DNA of 64,000 bases, taken from NCBI GenBank assembly GCA_035998725.1, contig DASYHJ010000003.1, forward strand, positions 53,087 through 117,086, read 5' to 3'. Of this stretch, positions 53,723-64,000 are shown piece by piece (position 1 is the stretch's first letter; each line of letters opens with the position of its first letter). The DNA is from Pirellulaceae bacterium. GTDB lineage: Bacteria; Planctomycetota; Planctomycetia; Pirellulales; Pirellulaceae. The notes below the pieces were generated by a model. The model was not told the DNA's origin. It saw only the letters and a program-made list of their open reading frames with translations, and did not search any database. Both the position numbers and the translations under genes were made by a program.

Positions 53723-55072
53723 ACGATGGTCGAAACCGCATCCGGCTACGAGGAGTTCGACGAACCGGTCTCGTTCGAGTCGGGTCTCGACACGCTGTTG
53801 CTCGGGGCCCATCGCGAGAGCAATAAGGGCCTCGGCTTTCATTCCAAGGCCGCCGGTCGGACCGAAACCAGGGCCGCTCTCTACGACGGCGACGCCCATC
53901 TCTGCACCGTCGCGCCGACGCGTTCCGGCAAAGGGGTCGGCGTCATCGCGCCGAATCTCCTTACCTACCGCGGCCCCGTCGTCGTCTTCGATCCGAAGGG
54001 CGAGAACTACGAAATCACCGCGCGGCGGCGCCGGGAGATGGGGCATCAGGTCGTACGGCTCGACCCGTTCGGCGTCTGCGGCGAAGGGGGCGACTCCTTC
54101 AATCCGCTCGAACTGTTCCAACTCAAGGGGATCGACGTCGAGTGCGATTCGCAGTCGATGGCCTCGCTCCTCTCGCGCGGCATCACCGGGTCGAAGGAAC
54201 CCTTCTGGGACATCAACGGCAGCGGCCTCTCCGCCGGCCTGATCGCCTGCGCGCTGACGCAGGGAGACGAGACCAAGAAGAGCCTGAACTACGTGGTCGA
54301 CGCGCTGACGCGGGATGACGTCGTTTACAACCTCGCCGTCGTGCTCGACACGGTCGGGAAGGAGATCAGCAAGTACGCCCATCGCGAGATCGCCAGCATG
54401 CTCCAGATGCCGGACATCACGCGCGGCGGCGTCCTGGCGACGGCGCAGACCTACTTCAAGCCGTTCATGTCCGACCTGATCGGACGGACGCTGGGCGAGT
54501 CGAGCTTCTCGCTGCAGGACTTCGCCGACGGCAAGCCGATCTCGATTTATCTCGTGCTCCCCCCCAGCCGGCTGCACAGCCATCGCGGGCTGCTCAAGCT
54601 CTGGATGGGAACGCTCCTCGCCGCGATCCTGACGCGGAAGCGGATCCCGCGCCTCCGCACGCTCTTCCTGATCGACGAGGCGGCGCAGCTCGAAAGCTTT
54701 CCGCTGCTCGAGCCGATGATCACCCTCGCGGCAGGCTACGGCGTCTGGGTCCACACCTTCTGGCAGGACCTGTCGCAGCTCAAAACCTGCTATCCGGAAT
54801 CGTGGAAGACCATCCTGAACAACTGCGGCGTGATCCAGACGTTCGGCATCTACAACCGTGACATGGCCGTGCAGTGGGGCGAGTACTTCGACGCCGGCCC
54901 GGCGGAACTTCGCAGCCTGACGCCGGAAGAACAGATCATCGCCATTCACGGACGCGGCGAACTCCGCTGCCGGCGGCTGAACTATCTCACCGACCGCCGC
55001 TTCTCCGGCATGTTCGACAAGAACAGCTTCTACGCGAACCGCCCGACGCCCGGCCAGCCGATGGGGAAGTAA
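53723..55072 (+). CDS. Type IV coupling-protein-like ATPase (TraG/TraD/VirD4 family), soluble, orphan
   Basis: 'APTRSGKGVGVIAPNLL' Walker A, 'VVFDPKGE', C-terminal all-alpha domain. No N-terminal TM helices. The start is uncertain; an alternative TTG/ATG lies at 53624. Confidence 0.55.
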   Translation, partial: TMVETASGYEEFDEPVSFESGLDTLLLGAHRESNKGLGFHSKAAGRTETRAALYDGDAHLCTVAPTRSGKGVGVIAPNLLTYRGPVVVFDPKGENYEITARRRREMGHQVVRLDPFGVCGEGGDSFNPLELFQLKGIDVECDSQSMASLLSRGITGSKEPFWDINGSGLSAGLIACALTQGDETKKSLNYVVDALTRDDVVYNLAVVLDTVGKEISKYAHREIASMLQMPDITRGGVLATAQTYFKPFMSDLIGRTLGESSFSLQDFADGKPISIYLVLPPSRLHSHRGLLKLWMGTLLAAILTRKRIPRLRTLFLIDEAAQLESFPLLEPMITLAAGYGVWVHTFWQDLSQLKTCYPESWKTILNNCGVIQTFGIYNRDMAVQWGEYFDAGPAELRSLTPEEQIIAIHGRGELRCRRLNYLTDRRFSGMFDKNSFYANRPTPGQPMGK

Positions 55073-59863: not shown

Positions 59864-61108
59864 TTACGTCTTTTCGCCCGGCAGGCAGAGAAGCTTGGAA
59901 TCCGTGCGGAAGAAAATCATCCCGTTCGCGACGGCCGGCGTCGCACGCGTCTGCTGGCCCAGCGAGGTCTTTCCGAGCAGTTCGAATTCCCGTCCCGCCT
60001 TCAGGACAAGCGCCTCGCCCGCGTCGTTCACCATCAGGATGCGGTTACCGATCAGAATGGGCGAGCCGGAGAATTCGCCGCCGATCCGCTCCTGCCAGAC
60101 GATCTCTCCCGTCGCCAGCTCCATCGCGCTGACGATCCCCTTGTCGTTGAACAGATACATCAGTTCGTCGTCGGCCACGCTGGTGGGGACGTACGGCACG
60201 AGACCCTTCACGCGATAGGCTTCTTCCGGCGAATCGCCCGGCTTGATCGCGACTAAATAGTTGCCGCCCCCGCCCGAGCCGGTCGATCCGAACAGCATCC
60301 CGCCCGCGGCGATGGGGGAGGAGACCGTCCTCTGCTCGAAAACGTCGAGGTTCCACGTCATCTCGCCCGTCTTCGGATCGACGGCGAACATCCCCTCGGA
60401 CGTGCTCGTGCAGACGAGTTCCTTCTCGCCGCCTCGGTTCGTGACGACGCACGGCACGCTGTAGGAAAGCTTGCTGCTTTCGCAGGGCAGGCGCCACAGT
60501 TCGGTCCCCTTCGCCGCGTCGAAGGCGTAGAGAAAGCTCTGCCCCGGCTCGACGCCCGCGGGAAGTTGCTCCCCTTCCTGATTGGCGTTGAGGTAGACGA
60601 TCCCGTCGTACACGGCGGGGCTCGTGCCGAAGCCGTGCTGGCTGACCCAGGGACCGAGCGACTTCTCCCAGACCTGCTGGCCCGAATGATCGAGGGCGAC
60701 CAGCGTCGTCTCGTCGTCGCTCGACCACGCGAAGTAGACCCGCTCCGCGTCGCAGGCCGGCGTGCAGGAAGCGTACGAGTTTCGGTTGTGAAGATGGTGC
60801 GGTCGCGACTCGTGGCTCTTCCGCCAAAGTTCCTTGCCGCTATCGGCGTCGTAACAGAGGAGGTACCGCGTCGCGTCGTCCGGGTTGGCCGACATCACGA
60901 ACAGCAGATTGCCCCACAGCGTCGGCGACGAGTTGCCGATCCCCGGCAGATCCGTCGTCCAGGCGTAATTGCCGGCGGACCACGTCGCCGGAACGGTTAC
61001 CCCCTCCACGCGGCCCTGGCCGTTCGGCCCATGAAAGCGGGTCCACTCCTGCCCCACGGCGACGGAAGAGAGACCGCAGGCGAGCAGGATCGCGAGAAAG
61101 AGACGCAT
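59864..61108 (-). CDS. PQQ-like beta-propeller repeat protein (BamB-like), secreted
   Basis: Trimmed to the ATG at 61106-61108 (MRLFLAILLACGLSSVAVGQEW, a signal peptide). Repeated 'G.ELW' blades. Confidence 0.75.
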   Translation of the reverse strand: MRLFLAILLACGLSSVAVGQEWTRFHGPNGQGRVEGVTVPATWSAGNYAWTTDLPGIGNSSPTLWGNLLFVMSANPDDATRYLLCYDADSGKELWRKSHESRPHHLHNRNSYASCTPACDAERVYFAWSSDDETTLVALDHSGQQVWEKSLGPWVSQHGFGTSPAVYDGIVYLNANQEGEQLPAGVEPGQSFLYAFDAAKGTELWRLPCESSKLSYSVPCVVTNRGGEKELVCTSTSEGMFAVDPKTGEMTWNLDVFEQRTVSSPIAAGGMLFGSTGSGGGGNYLVAIKPGDSPEEAYRVKGLVPYVPTSVADDELMYLFNDKGIVSAMELATGEIVWQERIGGEFSGSPILIGNRILMVNDAGEALVLKAGREFELLGKTSLGQQTRATPAVANGMIFFRTDSKLLCLPGEKT

Positions 61109-61356
61109 CGGGGCAGGCTTTCGGAGAAGCGGCGAACGGAGGCAGGCAGGCAAGCAGAGGGCACGTACAGAAGGATTCTGCCCCGCCGACCGCGCCAATG
61201 CAACGTGCGGAGGGGCGCCGAGGATTCGACAGGTCTTCACCGCCCGCCATTTGACGGCGGCGTGTCGCGCAGGCTAGCGTAGGCAGATGGCCGTCCGTTT
61301 CGATCGTCGAAACGAACGAAGCCCGTCGAACGCCTTAATCGTCGAGAAGGCAAATC

Positions 61357-61764
61357 ATGTTGACGAGTCGCCGCTGGTTCGGGGCGGGTGGGATCGCGCT
61401 TGTGGCTATAGGCGTCGGCCTGCTGGCATTCGGCGCCGTTCAGGCATTCCAGCCGGAACCGGTACCGATCATCCCGACGGTCGTCGAACTGGGCGAGTTG
61501 CCCGCAGGCGAAGGGACGACGACGCTGACGATCGAAAACCCGACCGCGGAGCCCTTCCGCGTTCTCGGCGCCCGGATCTGCTGCGGACTGGAAAGCGTCG
61601 AGCCGCTGCCCCTGACGGTGCCCCCTTACGAATCCCGCGAGTTGACTCTTCGCTTTCGCTGCATCGGCGAACCAGGCGCCGAGCGAAAGATGCTGTACGA
61701 CCTGTTCGTCGAGCGTGACGACGATATGACGTTTCGCGGCGAAATTCACTACCGCATCAAGTGA
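61357..61764 (+). CDS. DUF1573-like beta-sandwich protein with N-terminal TM anchor
   Basis: TM helix, then 'TVVELGELPAGEGTTTLTIENPTAEPFRVLGARICCGLE...', the same architecture as the C-terminus of the next gene. Domain assignment is from memory. Confidence 0.5.
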   Translation: MLTSRRWFGAGGIALVAIGVGLLAFGAVQAFQPEPVPIIPTVVELGELPAGEGTTTLTIENPTAEPFRVLGARICCGLESVEPLPLTVPPYESRELTLRFRCIGEPGAERKMLYDLFVERDDDMTFRGEIHYRIK

Positions 61765-61840
61765 AGTAGCCCTTTCGCCCGCGTCCGCGCTTCGAGGCAT
61801 TCGCGGATTTGGTAGGTTTTTCTACGGCGCCGAGTCAGCC

Positions 61841-61862
61841 AGAGAGAGAGAGAGAGAGAGAG
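61841..61862. repeat. (AG)11 dinucleotide microsatellite
   Basis: agagagagagagagagagagag, in the intergenic region 195 bp upstream of the MauE-DUF1573 gene. Confidence 0.9.
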
Positions 61863-62056
61863 CAGCACGAAAACGCCGAATCTTCGGGAGATTGCGGGGA
61901 GCGCTCGCATCGGCAGGCTGATCGCCTCAACGGGCTCAGCGGCAATCGTGACGCCGTAGCGATTTGAACGGATCGACCTAGTGAACGAATTTCCTTGAAG
62001 CGTAGCGAAAGCGTGGTAGCCTCTGGAGCGTTGCGTTGACCTAAGGGAGTACCCCG

Positions 62057-62914
62057 ATGCGTCGCGTCGCTCTTGTCTGCATAGGTCTGGTTCTTCTCGC
62101 TGCCGGGATCGCGAAGATCGCGGCGCTCTCCGGCCCGGTCGATACGCTGGGCTGGCCCCGCGAGATGATCGTCGCGGGCTCGGCGGTCGAACTGCTGCTC
62201 GGCGCCTGGCTTCTCTCAGGCGCGGCGATTCGCCTGGCCCATCTGGCCGCGATCGGCATCTTCCTGCTCTTCGCCCTGCTGTCGGCGTATCAGGTCATCC
62301 GCGGCGTCCCAAGTTGCGGTTGTCTCGGCAAGCTCTACGTCCATCCGGCGTGGATGCTGACCTTCGATCTCGTCACTCTCGCGACGCTGACCGGTCTCTG
62401 GTTCTTCGATCGGCGAGAGAGAAGCCCCGCCGATACGAAGAACGCTGCCCCCACCGATCGGGGCGTCCGCTCCTACCTCGCTTACGGCTCGGCCTTCGTG
62501 TCCGTCGCCGCCGTCGGCTTGTTCGTCGCCGGCTGGACCTTCGCAGGATCGCTCGGCGGCGCGGTCGCTGTGGCGGGTGGAAGCGAACTCGTCGTTTCCC
62601 CCGCAGTCGTCGATTTGGGTAGCGGTACGGTCGGCGAAACCAAGCAGGCGGCTGTTCGTCTGGTCAACGCCTCGACGTCCCCGGTGCGCATCGTCGGCGG
62701 GAAGAACAGCTGCGGCTGCATGGTGACCAGCGAACTCCCCGTCACGATCCCCGCCCGAGGCAGCGCCGCGTTTCCGATCGAAGTGACGATCACGAGCGAA
62801 GGTTACCGCGAGGTGTTCTTCACGCTCTACACCGATCACGATCAGGCCCGCAGCGTCGCAGGCCGCGTGAGGATGCGAGGGGCGGCACCCCTCGCGGTCG
62901 CTTCGGATCGCTAG
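62057..62914 (+). CDS. MauE/DoxX-like membrane protein fused to C-terminal DUF1573-like domain
   Basis: Four TM helices with 'SCGCLGKL' (MauE family motif). C-terminal 'VVSPAVVDLGSGTVGETKQAAVRLVNASTSPVRIVGGKNSCGCMV' beta-sandwich. Confidence 0.6.
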   Translation: MRRVALVCIGLVLLAAGIAKIAALSGPVDTLGWPREMIVAGSAVELLLGAWLLSGAAIRLAHLAAIGIFLLFALLSAYQVIRGVPSCGCLGKLYVHPAWMLTFDLVTLATLTGLWFFDRRERSPADTKNAAPTDRGVRSYLAYGSAFVSVAAVGLFVAGWTFAGSLGGAVAVAGGSELVVSPAVVDLGSGTVGETKQAAVRLVNASTSPVRIVGGKNSCGCMVTSELPVTIPARGSAAFPIEVTITSEGYREVFFTLYTDHDQARSVAGRVRMRGAAPLAVASDR

Positions 62915-62985
62915 CCGTTTGACTGTCGAAAGATCTGCGGCGGTCGCAGATCGAAGGTCATAGGTCGTCTGGAAGGAGTCGCGAA

Positions 62986-63507
62986 ATGGCACGCCTCAAG
63001 AGATTCTCTCGGCGCTACGGCAAGATCACGCTCGCCTCGCTCGGCGGAGCGCTGATGACGACCGGCATGTTCCTGATCGTGCTCTCCGCGGCGACCGTGT
63101 CGCAGGTGGCGAGCGCCAGCACGACAGGATGCCAAGCATACTCGTCGCCCCAGCCTTTTCACCGCTGCACGCCAGTATACTTCCAGGGCTCGATCTATTA
63201 CTATGACTGTTGCCATGAGTGCGACACGAAGGACTATTCGTATAATACCAATCCAGACTACGACTGCACCAACTGCAGGGACGAGACGGGCGACGGAATT
63301 CCGGATGTATGCGACTGCTGCACTGCGCAAGCTGCTCCGCAATGCACGAACGGCACTTGCGAGAACCAAGGAAGTTTGTGCAAGAGTCCACAATATGAAG
63401 CCACCAACGGCTACTGCGAAGCCCACTGGGGCTCCGATTGTAGAGTTCACTCGGGATGCCCGTGTACTTGCGACGCCAACCTGCTTGCGCCATGTGGGTG
63501 CCAGTAG
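62986..63507 (+). CDS. Secreted cysteine-rich protein (about 29 Cys in 173 aa), codon-atypical
   Basis: RBS GGAAGGAG. Signal/anchor MARLKRFSRRYGKITLASLGGALMTTGMFLIVLSAATVSQVASAS, then CC/CxC/CxxC-dense mature region. A/T-ending codons (TAT, AAT, CAA, AGT), unlike the rest of the window. Confidence 0.6.
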   Translation: MARLKRFSRRYGKITLASLGGALMTTGMFLIVLSAATVSQVASASTTGCQAYSSPQPFHRCTPVYFQGSIYYYDCCHECDTKDYSYNTNPDYDCTNCRDETGDGIPDVCDCCTAQAAPQCTNGTCENQGSLCKSPQYEATNGYCEAHWGSDCRVHSGCPCTCDANLLAPCGCQ

Positions 63508-63636
63508 GCGTCTCAGGTGTCGAAAGCGTGAATCGCATGGCGGCCCGCTTGCGAAGGCTGGACGTTCGATCGCACGGATATTTGTTTCCGTCGGTCTCGC
63601 TAGGGCGAAATCCCCTTCTCTTCGTTTCAGTCGCCC

Positions 63637-63870
63637 ATGTCTCAAACACGCCCAGTCATACTCGCCGCAACAGTCGCATGCCTTCTATGCCCATCCTGCG
63701 CACATGCACTACCGCCTGAAATCTCGCAGGGATGGGAGCGTTTACGGAAAGTATGTGACGAGCAATCGCACCTCGCCGTCACGTCTACCATTCATGCCGT
63801 CGTGAGAGGTGGACCCACTCCAAGCGAAGGACGCTTGGTGGTAATTGAGCAGTTCGCTCATCTAGTGTAG
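63637..63870 (+). CDS. Small signal-peptide protein (77 aa), codon-atypical
   Basis: MSQTRPVILAATVACLLCPSCAHA signal. A/T-ending codons like the upstream gene. Confidence 0.35.
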   Translation: MSQTRPVILAATVACLLCPSCAHALPPEISQGWERLRKVCDEQSHLAVTSTIHAVVRGGPTPSEGRLVVIEQFAHLV

Positions 63871-63941
63871 CGACATGAAATAGCGCGACGTTTGTTCGGG
63901 TGCGGGGTTTCAGGAGCGTCTTTCGTCGGAAAGGAGACGCT

Positions 63942-64000
63942 CATGCGGTCAGCGCCGGTCGTGGTTTTGTCGGAGGAGACGCGGGTTCGATTGACGAAGC
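63942..64000 (+). mobile_element. Partial ORF at window edge, possible IS630-family transposase N-terminus
   Basis: MRSAPVVVLSEETRVRLTK resembles the IS630 HTH N-terminus (…LSEEER..L…). Only 19 codons are visible. Confidence 0.2.

Follow-up and report, generated by a model that had tools for sequence, protein, structure and literature searches.

A cassette of three genes near the end of the window (a stretch of 64,000 nucleotides (nt) of Pirellulaceae bacterium DNA, GenBank assembly GCA_035998725.1, contig DASYHJ010000003.1, positions 53,087 to 117,086 of the forward strand) is proposed, with a probability of roughly 0.6, to be a dedicated oxidative-folding module that is private to one hypervariable, Cys-rich secreted client. 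The cassette consists of gene A, which encodes a membrane-anchored DUF1573-like protein, gene B, which encodes a MauE domain fused to a DUF1573-type beta-sandwich, and gene C, which encodes the Cys-rich protein. The coordinates and reading frames given for the three genes in the initial annotation were checked and are correct; all three lie on the same strand, with spacers of 292 nt between A and B and 71 nt between B and C. The proposal is carried by the domain architecture of the fusion, its conserved active-site residues, its predicted topology, and a gene order with a hypervariable client that is strictly conserved.

Gene B (62057-62914, plus strand) encodes 285 amino acids (aa), comprising a MauE domain, a fifth transmembrane (TM) helix and the beta-sandwich, as delimited by Pfam and by an AlphaFold2 (AF2) model. 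Pfam MauE (PF07291) was matched over residues 5-115 at 33.2 bits (gathering cut-off 27), within a four-helix membrane domain assigned to residues 1-125 (62057-62431, plus strand). The AF2 model, for which 17 homologues were used as input, has a mean predicted local distance difference test score (pLDDT) of 81, and places helices at residues 2-25, 32-54, 58-82, 97-121 and 133-163, and the beta-sandwich at residues 178-276. The four TM helices initially ascribed to B therefore describe the MauE core correctly, and the protein as a whole has five, including the linker helix. The SCGCLG motif (residues 86-91) contains the MauE active-site motif Cys87-Gly-Cys89 (62315-62323, plus strand), and the segment C87-G-C89-L-G sits in the loop of residues 83-96, between TM3 and TM4 and on the periplasmic side. 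Residue conservation was counted over 157 family members: C87, C89 and G91 are each kept in all 157, Lys20 (62114-62116, plus strand) in 152, and Glu45 (62189-62191, plus strand) in 154, both of these lying within the MauE domain, and the residue that follows CGC (position 90) is F in 108 members and L in 46. Apart from the two CGC motifs of B, the only Cys is C8, within TM1. Foldseek with the B model left the membrane domain unmatched among the 50 best matches, which covered the tail alone. By every property of MauE that sequence and model allow to be inspected, B is a bona fide MauE.

MauE proteins from two phyla rescue the motility and the PhoA activity of an E. coli strain without dsbB, mutating either Cys of the periplasmic TM3-TM4 CXC abolishes DsbB replacement in two MauE proteins, and a conserved Lys in TM1 and Glu in TM2 adjoin docked ubiquinone (Gonzalez et al., bioRxiv 2026, 10.64898/2026.03.05.709764). 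B resembles these DsbB-type MauE proteins in its four-helix core, in the TM3-TM4 CXC followed by [F/L]-G, and in the TM1 Lys and TM2 Glu; since these are the features (K, E, CXC, G) that the preprint ties to activity, they support B as an active-type MauE.

The fifth TM helix (residues 133-163; 62453-62545, plus strand) takes the tail across the membrane in the AF2 model, and the tail itself is an immunoglobulin (Ig)-like beta-sandwich of the PapD/ASH/HYDIN type (residues 178-276; 62588-62884, plus strand), modelled with pLDDT above 90 and predicted to be periplasmic. Residues 183-263 were matched by Pfam DUF1573 (PF07610) at 23.4 bits, 2.7 bits below the cut-off of 26.1, and by the related HYDIN, ASH and PapD Ig models. 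The DUF1573 assignment holds at the level of the family, because the homologue on one metagenome contig (L014) scores 54.7 bits and because precomputed PF07291 and PF07610 matches are both present in most fusion homologues; the fusion of MauE to DUF1573, with SCGCLG in the first part and SCGC in the second, was thus rightly recognised in the initial annotation. The best Foldseek match of the tail was the HYDIN PapD-like domain 2e6j (target TM-score 0.79, root-mean-square deviation 1.9), among PapD-like, ASH and HYDIN Ig domains generally, and a PDB sequence-profile search with the fusion returned HYDIN and FAP Ig repeats only. No thioredoxin-family match was obtained for A, B or C in Pfam or NCBIfam. 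NCBIfam gave weak matches of the B tail to choice-of-anchor D and to the OS_HP2 (seleno)protein family (NF041425); against a cut-off of 100 bits for the latter, the B tail scored 14.3 bits and the A-like proteins 12.7-20.3 bits, scores that speak for a remote kinship only.

The SCGC of the tail (residues 218-221) supplies Cys219-Gly-Cys221 (62711-62719, plus strand), a putative disulfide-carrier site, which is about 95% conserved (C219 in 152 and C221 in 149 of the 157 members). Substitution between selenocysteine (U) and Cys is typical of redox-active sites. DUF1573 selenoproteins carry UGC at the motif equivalent to that of the tail (selenoproteome reviews PMC9312934, PMC13188914), and the first Cys of the tail CGC is therefore marked as a redox residue.

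For topology, the positive-inside rule places the N-terminus of B (MRR) and the loop of residues 118-140, because of its 6 Lys/Arg, in the cytoplasm, and the C87-G-C89 loop and the tail in the periplasm; the tail is outside the cytoplasm because the fifth TM helix links it to the MauE core. With the positive-inside rule and AF2 taken together, the MauE CGC loop, the tail CGC, the vicinal Cys pair of A and the mature Cys-rich protein are all predicted to be on the periplasmic side.

Gene C (62986-63507, plus strand) encodes 173 aa. Its predicted signal peptide (residues 1-44; 62986-63117, plus strand) combines a basic n-region with a long h-region, and V-A-S-A precedes the predicted cleavage site; the mature product (63118-63507, plus strand), the putative substrate, is 129 aa long, with 20 Cys (15.5%), a net charge of -11 and the C-terminus C-G-C-Q. 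The Cys-rich exported protein reported 71 nt downstream of B is thus confirmed in its spacing and its signal peptide, with a Cys count of 20 in place of the 29 first given. Of the open reading frames (ORFs) in the 64-kb window that are 60 aa or longer, only gene C reaches both 7 Cys and 10% Cys, and chance adjacency of B and C is excluded for that reason. Tat (twin-arginine) export of C, for which the segment SRRYGK was the candidate signal, was rejected, as the twin arginine is not conserved in the close relatives L003 and L005; Sec-type export is therefore predicted. No family in Pfam or NCBIfam matched C, and its homologues in the protein database consist of an identical copy and one 72% relative. 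Since the C family could not be traced by sequence, it was followed through synteny.

For the synteny comparison, 18 loci were used: the window, three close relatives (L003-L005), four Gemmataceae or Fimbriiglobus contigs from metagenome-assembled genomes (MAGs; L006-L009), four metagenome contigs (L011-L014), and six contigs chosen via the profile search described below (L015-L020). At all 18 loci, the stop codon of the fusion is followed after approximately 0-150 nt by the start of an ORF that has a signal peptide and 10-18% Cys; this includes L015, in which this ORF had been missed by the gene caller and is nevertheless present; in the database entry P0020, the fusion and the Cys-rich gene had been merged into one call. 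The loci come from Pirellulaceae, from Gemmataceae and from metagenome contigs without a taxonomic assignment, and the identity of the fusion to B goes down to about 30%.

The predicted mature forms of the clients, with cleavage sites assigned by eye, are 59-136 aa long and acidic, contain 10-18% Cys, and usually carry a C-x-C within the last few residues. The number of Cys is even in 10 of 11 predicted mature clients (probability about 0.006 under random parity), and the distances between Cys residues are hypervariable, neither a CxxC nor a CxC metal-cluster pattern recurring among the clients. Two client genes are present in L017. An exhaustive profile search returned 1,065 representatives of the fusion family (clusters at 50% identity) at E<=1e-30, and among the 150 best of these the large majority are 220-360 aa long and match from end to end; at least two paralogous fusions (P0005 and P0009) are apparently encoded on one 279-kb contig, which, together with the two clients of L017, fits private modules rather than housekeeping enzymes. 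Other MauE or DUF1573 architectures were also seen, namely a protein of 498 aa in which MauE is joined to a Ser/Thr protein kinase domain (P0192), and giant proteins, 1,200-3,800 aa long, in which 10-21 DUF1573-like domains stand in tandem (P0026-P0029, P0043, P0111, P0143).

Divergence is distributed unevenly over the cassette. Between the window and L005 or L003, identity is 64-67% for B, 59-66% for the signal peptide of C and 19% for its mature part, and between the tandem copies in L017 it is 92% for the C signal peptide, 34% for the mature part and 63% for the product of gene D, which follows the client. Synonymous divergence (dS) between the window and L004 is 0.27 for B, 0.19 for the C signal peptide, 1.64 for the mature part of C and 1.43 for A. 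The ratio of nonsynonymous to synonymous rates (dN/dS) of mature C in the same comparison is 0.14, which shows C to be a genuine coding gene subject to purifying selection. Positive selection on C, also considered, is unsupported (dN/dS 0.14 between the window and L004, 0.52 between the L017 duplicates); the pattern is instead a mosaic of dS, and suggests exchange of the segment coding for the mature part, or homogenisation of the signal-peptide and oxidase segments, for example by gene conversion.

Gene A (61357-61764, plus strand) encodes a protein of 135 aa, a periplasmic DUF1573-like beta-sandwich on a single TM anchor, with an N-in TM helix at approximately residues 13-31 and the domain predicted to lie in the periplasm. 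Its match to Pfam DUF1573 is weak (15.1 bits), and pairwise BLASTP against the B tail gave 25% identity over 109 residues (E 5e-11); on this alignment A is a TM-anchored paralogue of the B tail, in agreement with the initial annotation, which had described it as an anchored copy of the tail with ICCG. The ICCG motif occupies residues 74-77, CC replacing CxC, and the vicinal Cys75-Cys76 (61579-61584, plus strand) form a putative redox motif; the alignment column of the second of these, Cys76, holds Cys in 8 of 8 aligned A-like proteins as well as C219 of the B tail. Orthologues of A are found in L004 and L005, and A-like genes in L006 and L015-L018. The position of the gene varies: it lies upstream of the fusion in the window, L004, L005 and L015, and after the pseudopilin or D gene in L006 and L016-L018.

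In L015-L018, the A-like genes (L015 4321-4740; L016 7679-8128; L017 9253-9672; L018 5846-6271) contain an in-frame TGA 4-5 residues ahead of the invariant Cys, as in ..GLATC-TGA-GVRCRFG.., and the frame beyond it remains open for 65-70 codons, completing the beta-sandwich; all four genes had been cut to 70-83 aa by gene callers. The L006 A-like protein has Cys at the motif position that corresponds to the TGA (C-x4-C vs U-x3/4-C). A conserved hairpin whose apical loop contains GU begins about 12-17 nt past the TGA, a spacing compatible with a bacterial selenocysteine insertion sequence (SECIS); its folding energy is no better than that of shuffled sequences, and it overlaps conserved codons. 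An Rfam search of the putative SECIS regions of L015-L018 gave no match. The TGA-type A-like genes of these four loci are probably unannotated selenoproteins. The A of the window is an all-Cys form, and its TGA relatives support a redox role for the stand-alone protein.

The cassette extends beyond the client. In most loci with enough downstream sequence, the client is followed by gene D and then by a DUF1559/N_methyl (prepilin-type) pseudopilin gene. The product of gene D is 333-383 aa long and combines a signal peptide and a C-terminal TM helix with an FGLPEP-type motif, and its family returned nothing meaningful from Pfam, NCBIfam or PDB. Full-length D genes were located at L005 3956-4966, L003 7682-8725, L007 6259-7260, L014 6957-8108, L016 6602-7645, L017 5587-6639 and 7274-8320, L018 3852-4904 and L019 3252-4379, and also in L008. 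At the D position of the window there is a 77-codon ORF (63637-63870, plus strand), placed there by its position and its N-terminal signal peptide only, which is ended by a stop close to the contig end. DUF1559/N_methyl pseudopilin genes lie at L003 8722-9618, L006 7580-8515, L007 7674-8627, L009 3726-4649, L014 8139-9050, L016 10087-10810, L017 8357-9250, L018 4923-5816 and L019 4401-5303; DUF1559 genes are very numerous in planctomycetes, a caveat on their conservation in the cassette, and L005 4873-5250 resembles a degenerate remnant of such a pseudopilin gene. In L017 (4958-8320), the pair of client and D is tandemly duplicated, and seems to diversify as a unit.

The surroundings of the cassette were also inspected. 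Among the called genes and Pfam matches of the approximately 10 kb upstream of B (the contig ending about 1 kb downstream) and of the related loci, no mauA, mauB, mauD or mauG was present, and B lies outside any mau cluster. In the Pirellulaceae loci, the immediate upstream neighbour of the cassette is a PQQ_2/BamB-like beta-propeller gene (window 59864-61240, minus strand; L005 460-1716; L004 2-586), and another is near the cassette in L014 (2036-3589); this neighbour could be lineage synteny or a functional link. About 7 kb upstream, beside a gene for an RsgA-like GTPase, is a gene for a TraG/TrwB-type type IV secretion coupling protein (window approximately 53726-55072; L002 1670-3016), which may be a mobile-element remnant. 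The window has a base composition of about 66% GC, and the same stretch is present in the Pirellulaceae MAG contig Ga0370534_00145 (JGI 3300035016), which ends about 14 bases before the window does. A (GA)10 microsatellite is located at 61842-61861, inside the A-B spacer. A promoter and terminator scan of 61000-64000 gave no signal exceeding shuffle expectation.

In the mechanism that we propose, B would act as a MauE-type, quinone-linked membrane disulfide generator, a functional counterpart of DsbB or VKOR, whose periplasmic CGC loop (C87/C89) would be re-oxidised by the quinone pool and would in turn oxidise the tethered DUF1573 CGC (C219/C221), held in the periplasm by the fifth TM helix. 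The tail CGC would then hand its disulfide to client C, as DsbA, MauD or Mia40 do elsewhere. The client would reach the periplasm by Sec-type export, and its 20 mature Cys would suffice for ten disulfides. Gene A would most likely provide a second thiol-disulfide exchange catalyst, reshuffling wrong disulfides, for example. The direction of electron flow, the tail as carrier, C as substrate and the role of A are what we infer. The dedicated oxidative-folding partnership put forward in the initial annotation is supported by comparative genomics: the Cys-rich secreted ORF directly follows the fusion at every locus compared, profile searches bear out DUF1573 for the family (the window tail itself falling just short of the cut-off), and the Cys motifs are predicted to face the periplasm.

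The same parts could be run in the opposite direction. In a reductive or isomerase pathway, the MauE-DUF1573 protein would send electrons to the periplasm in the manner of DsbD-DsbC, keeping the Cys residues of the client reduced or only reshuffling disulfides brought in by another system; a beta-sandwich with CxC or selenocysteine would also be suited to isomerisation, A and the B tail could divide oxidation and isomerisation between them, and an earlier study suggested that MauE may be a reductase, according to 10.64898/2026.03.05.709764. However, MauE is without DsbD-type features, two MauE proteins replaced the oxidase DsbB functionally in the same preprint, the K/E quinone-site residues are near-invariant in the fusion family (152 and 154 of 157), and B offers no cytoplasmic Cys for interaction with thioredoxin, C8 lying in TM1, so that this direction is judged rather unlikely. 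If B were instead the general DsbB substitute of the cell, the Cys-rich neighbour would be a passenger, as might be expected from the argument of the preprint that MauE is a generalist (10.64898/2026.03.05.709764) and from the sheer size of the fusion family. An adjacency that is kept in 18 of 18 loci despite client divergence to about 19% identity, and two paralogous fusions apparently on one contig, make such a role improbable; moreover, the general role may be filled by another protein, encoded at L010 4896-5735, which is MauE-like (GVASCGCLG; Pfam MauE 19 bits, below the cut-off), has a different C-terminal domain, with CHRC (CxxC), and no Cys-rich secreted neighbour at its locus; within the phylum it could represent a generalist type of MauE fusion.

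Metal handling would make C a periplasmic metallothionein-like buffer or a metallophore-like product, the CxC beta-sandwiches metallochaperones, and MauE the enzyme that keeps thiols reduced or reduces the metal. Acidic clients with 12-18% Cys and terminal CxC motifs would suit this, and two matches point the same way, that of the tail to the beta-sandwich Cu(I) chaperone 3zja in Foldseek and that of one A-like protein to the metallothionein MymT, the latter trivial and weak; yet 3zja is one among hundreds of Ig-like Foldseek matches, the parity of client Cys is even in 10 of 11, the hypervariable spacing lacks any recurring CxxC or CxC cluster pattern, and the cassettes examined share no conserved gene for a metal transporter, a metal sensor or efflux, which leaves metal handling with a low probability. 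The combination of a conserved N-terminus with a hypervariable core, and the occurrence of mauE in Streptomyces candidate clusters for peptides that are ribosomally synthesised and modified post-translationally (RiPPs; PMC7794033), could be taken to mean that C is a precursor with non-disulfide Cys modifications (thioether cross-links, or quinone-type ones as in MauA) and that its N-terminus is a leader. That N-terminus, however, shows every part of a Sec signal peptide, including an A-x-A cleavage site, the mature products are protein-sized (59-136 aa), and no radical SAM, cyclase, leader peptidase-transporter, MauG-like or MauD-like gene is conserved in the cassettes examined; maturation of this kind is very improbable.

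The oxidative-folding reading has weaknesses of its own. All function is inferred from sequence, structure prediction, synteny and literature, and we know of no Ig-like beta-sandwich that is a demonstrated disulfide carrier. The DUF1573 scores of the window itself (23.4 bits for the B tail, 15.1 bits for A) are under the Pfam cut-off of 26.1, the AF2 model of C is uninformative (pLDDT 44), so that no disulfide pattern can be read from it, and one of the 11 clients, that of L005, has an odd number of Cys in its predicted mature part. Similarity to B was the basis on which all sampled loci were found, and their named taxa and DUF1559 neighbours suggest a restriction to Planctomycetota. Gene D and the DUF1559 pseudopilin, both conserved, are left unexplained by the folding model, and the reductase suggestion cited above counts on the same side. 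A bolder extension of the folding model, to which we give a rather low probability, would take in these two genes: DUF1573 would form a new, non-thioredoxin class of proteins that carry or isomerise disulfides in the periplasm and that also occur naturally with selenocysteine, and the cassette a diversifying effector system of hypervariable, disulfide-rich mini-proteins, each with its private oxidase, in which the co-varying, membrane-anchored D would serve as receptor, anchor or immunity factor and a pilin-like protein would take part, the whole being a bacterial counterpart of conotoxin or defensin-like arsenals.

Parts of the proposed module have precedents. MauE was first tied to the MauA subunit, which has six disulfides, and thioredoxin-superfamily fusions account for 8.2% of MauE entries (10.64898/2026.03.05.709764). 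Like these fusions, B joins MauE to a periplasmic redox partner; unlike them, it has as partner an Ig-like beta-sandwich of the DUF1573 type that carries a CxC of its own and is reached through an extra TM linker helix. Where a generalist MauE would serve the cell at large, gene B is in a fixed operon with one Cys-rich client. The arrangement resembles MauE/MauD/MauA of methylamine dehydrogenase in that MauE and a membrane-anchored periplasmic partner with a Cys motif stand beside a small, disulfide-rich exported subunit, and differs from the mau cluster in that no mauA, B, D or G is nearby, a DUF1573-type partner replaces the thioredoxin-like MauD, and the client is hypervariable and finds no match in Pfam or NCBIfam. 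With DsbB-DsbA and the VKOR-thioredoxin fusions it would share the proposed path from quinone to membrane enzyme, to a soluble or tethered carrier, and to a secreted client, and for VKOR the fusion of generator and carrier in one polypeptide is known (10.64898/2026.03.05.709764). Unlike DsbB and VKOR, to which B has no sequence or family relationship, the carrier of B is non-thioredoxin, and its motif is CxC rather than CxxC.

Two eukaryotic systems offer parallels of a looser kind. In the Mia40-Erv1 system of the mitochondrial intermembrane space, a non-thioredoxin CPC carrier oxidises small Cys-rich clients and is re-oxidised by a dedicated oxidase. This is an analogy only, limited to the CxC-type carrier, as folds and compartment are unrelated and Erv1 is a flavoenzyme where B would be a quinone-linked membrane protein. 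Conotoxin-type gene superfamilies are animal venom genes in which a conserved signal sequence precedes a hypervariable, disulfide-rich mature part. The likeness here is one of evolutionary pattern only: in the cassette, the signal sequence is conserved even synonymously, and no positive selection was detected (dN/dS 0.14).

A further bacterial precedent for the pairing is found in Streptomyces, where mauE is paired with precursors of at least 8 Cys in three candidate RiPP families (decRiPPter, PMC7794033). As in the window, a mauE homologue outside a mau cluster there stands beside a small Cys-rich product; unlike the cassette described here, those families belong to another phylum, the study reports no DUF1573 fusion, D or DUF1559, and its products are classed as possible RiPPs and are uncharacterised. 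The formation of disulfides by MauE, and its pairing with Cys-rich products, are thus already known or foreshadowed, and the claim of a new functional association, as first made, is too broad for MauE in view of MauA, the Streptomyces families and the replacement of DsbB. Neither the DUF1573 carrier nor the cassette at large seems to have been described: no account was found in the literature of a DUF1573 disulfide carrier, of a conserved operon with a hypervariable client, of D, of the pseudopilin or of the selenocysteine-type A, and DUF1573 is scarce in the searchable literature, none of which concerns this MauE-fusion arrangement.

If the oxidative-folding reading is true, it would give a first function to DUF1573, which is widespread in Planctomycetota and Bacteroidota, as a disulfide carrier without the thioredoxin fold, and would extend oxidative folding by MauE from a generalist enzyme to private, operon-encoded pairs of enzyme and client. 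A compact fusion of oxidase and carrier could also aid the production of disulfide-rich peptides. The A-like genes of the related loci would point to probable selenoproteins that gene callers have truncated at TGA. For the planctomycetes themselves, the cassettes would bring to light a large family, so far unannotated, of secreted proteins that are hypervariable and rich in disulfides, and that are candidate effectors, toxins or adhesins.

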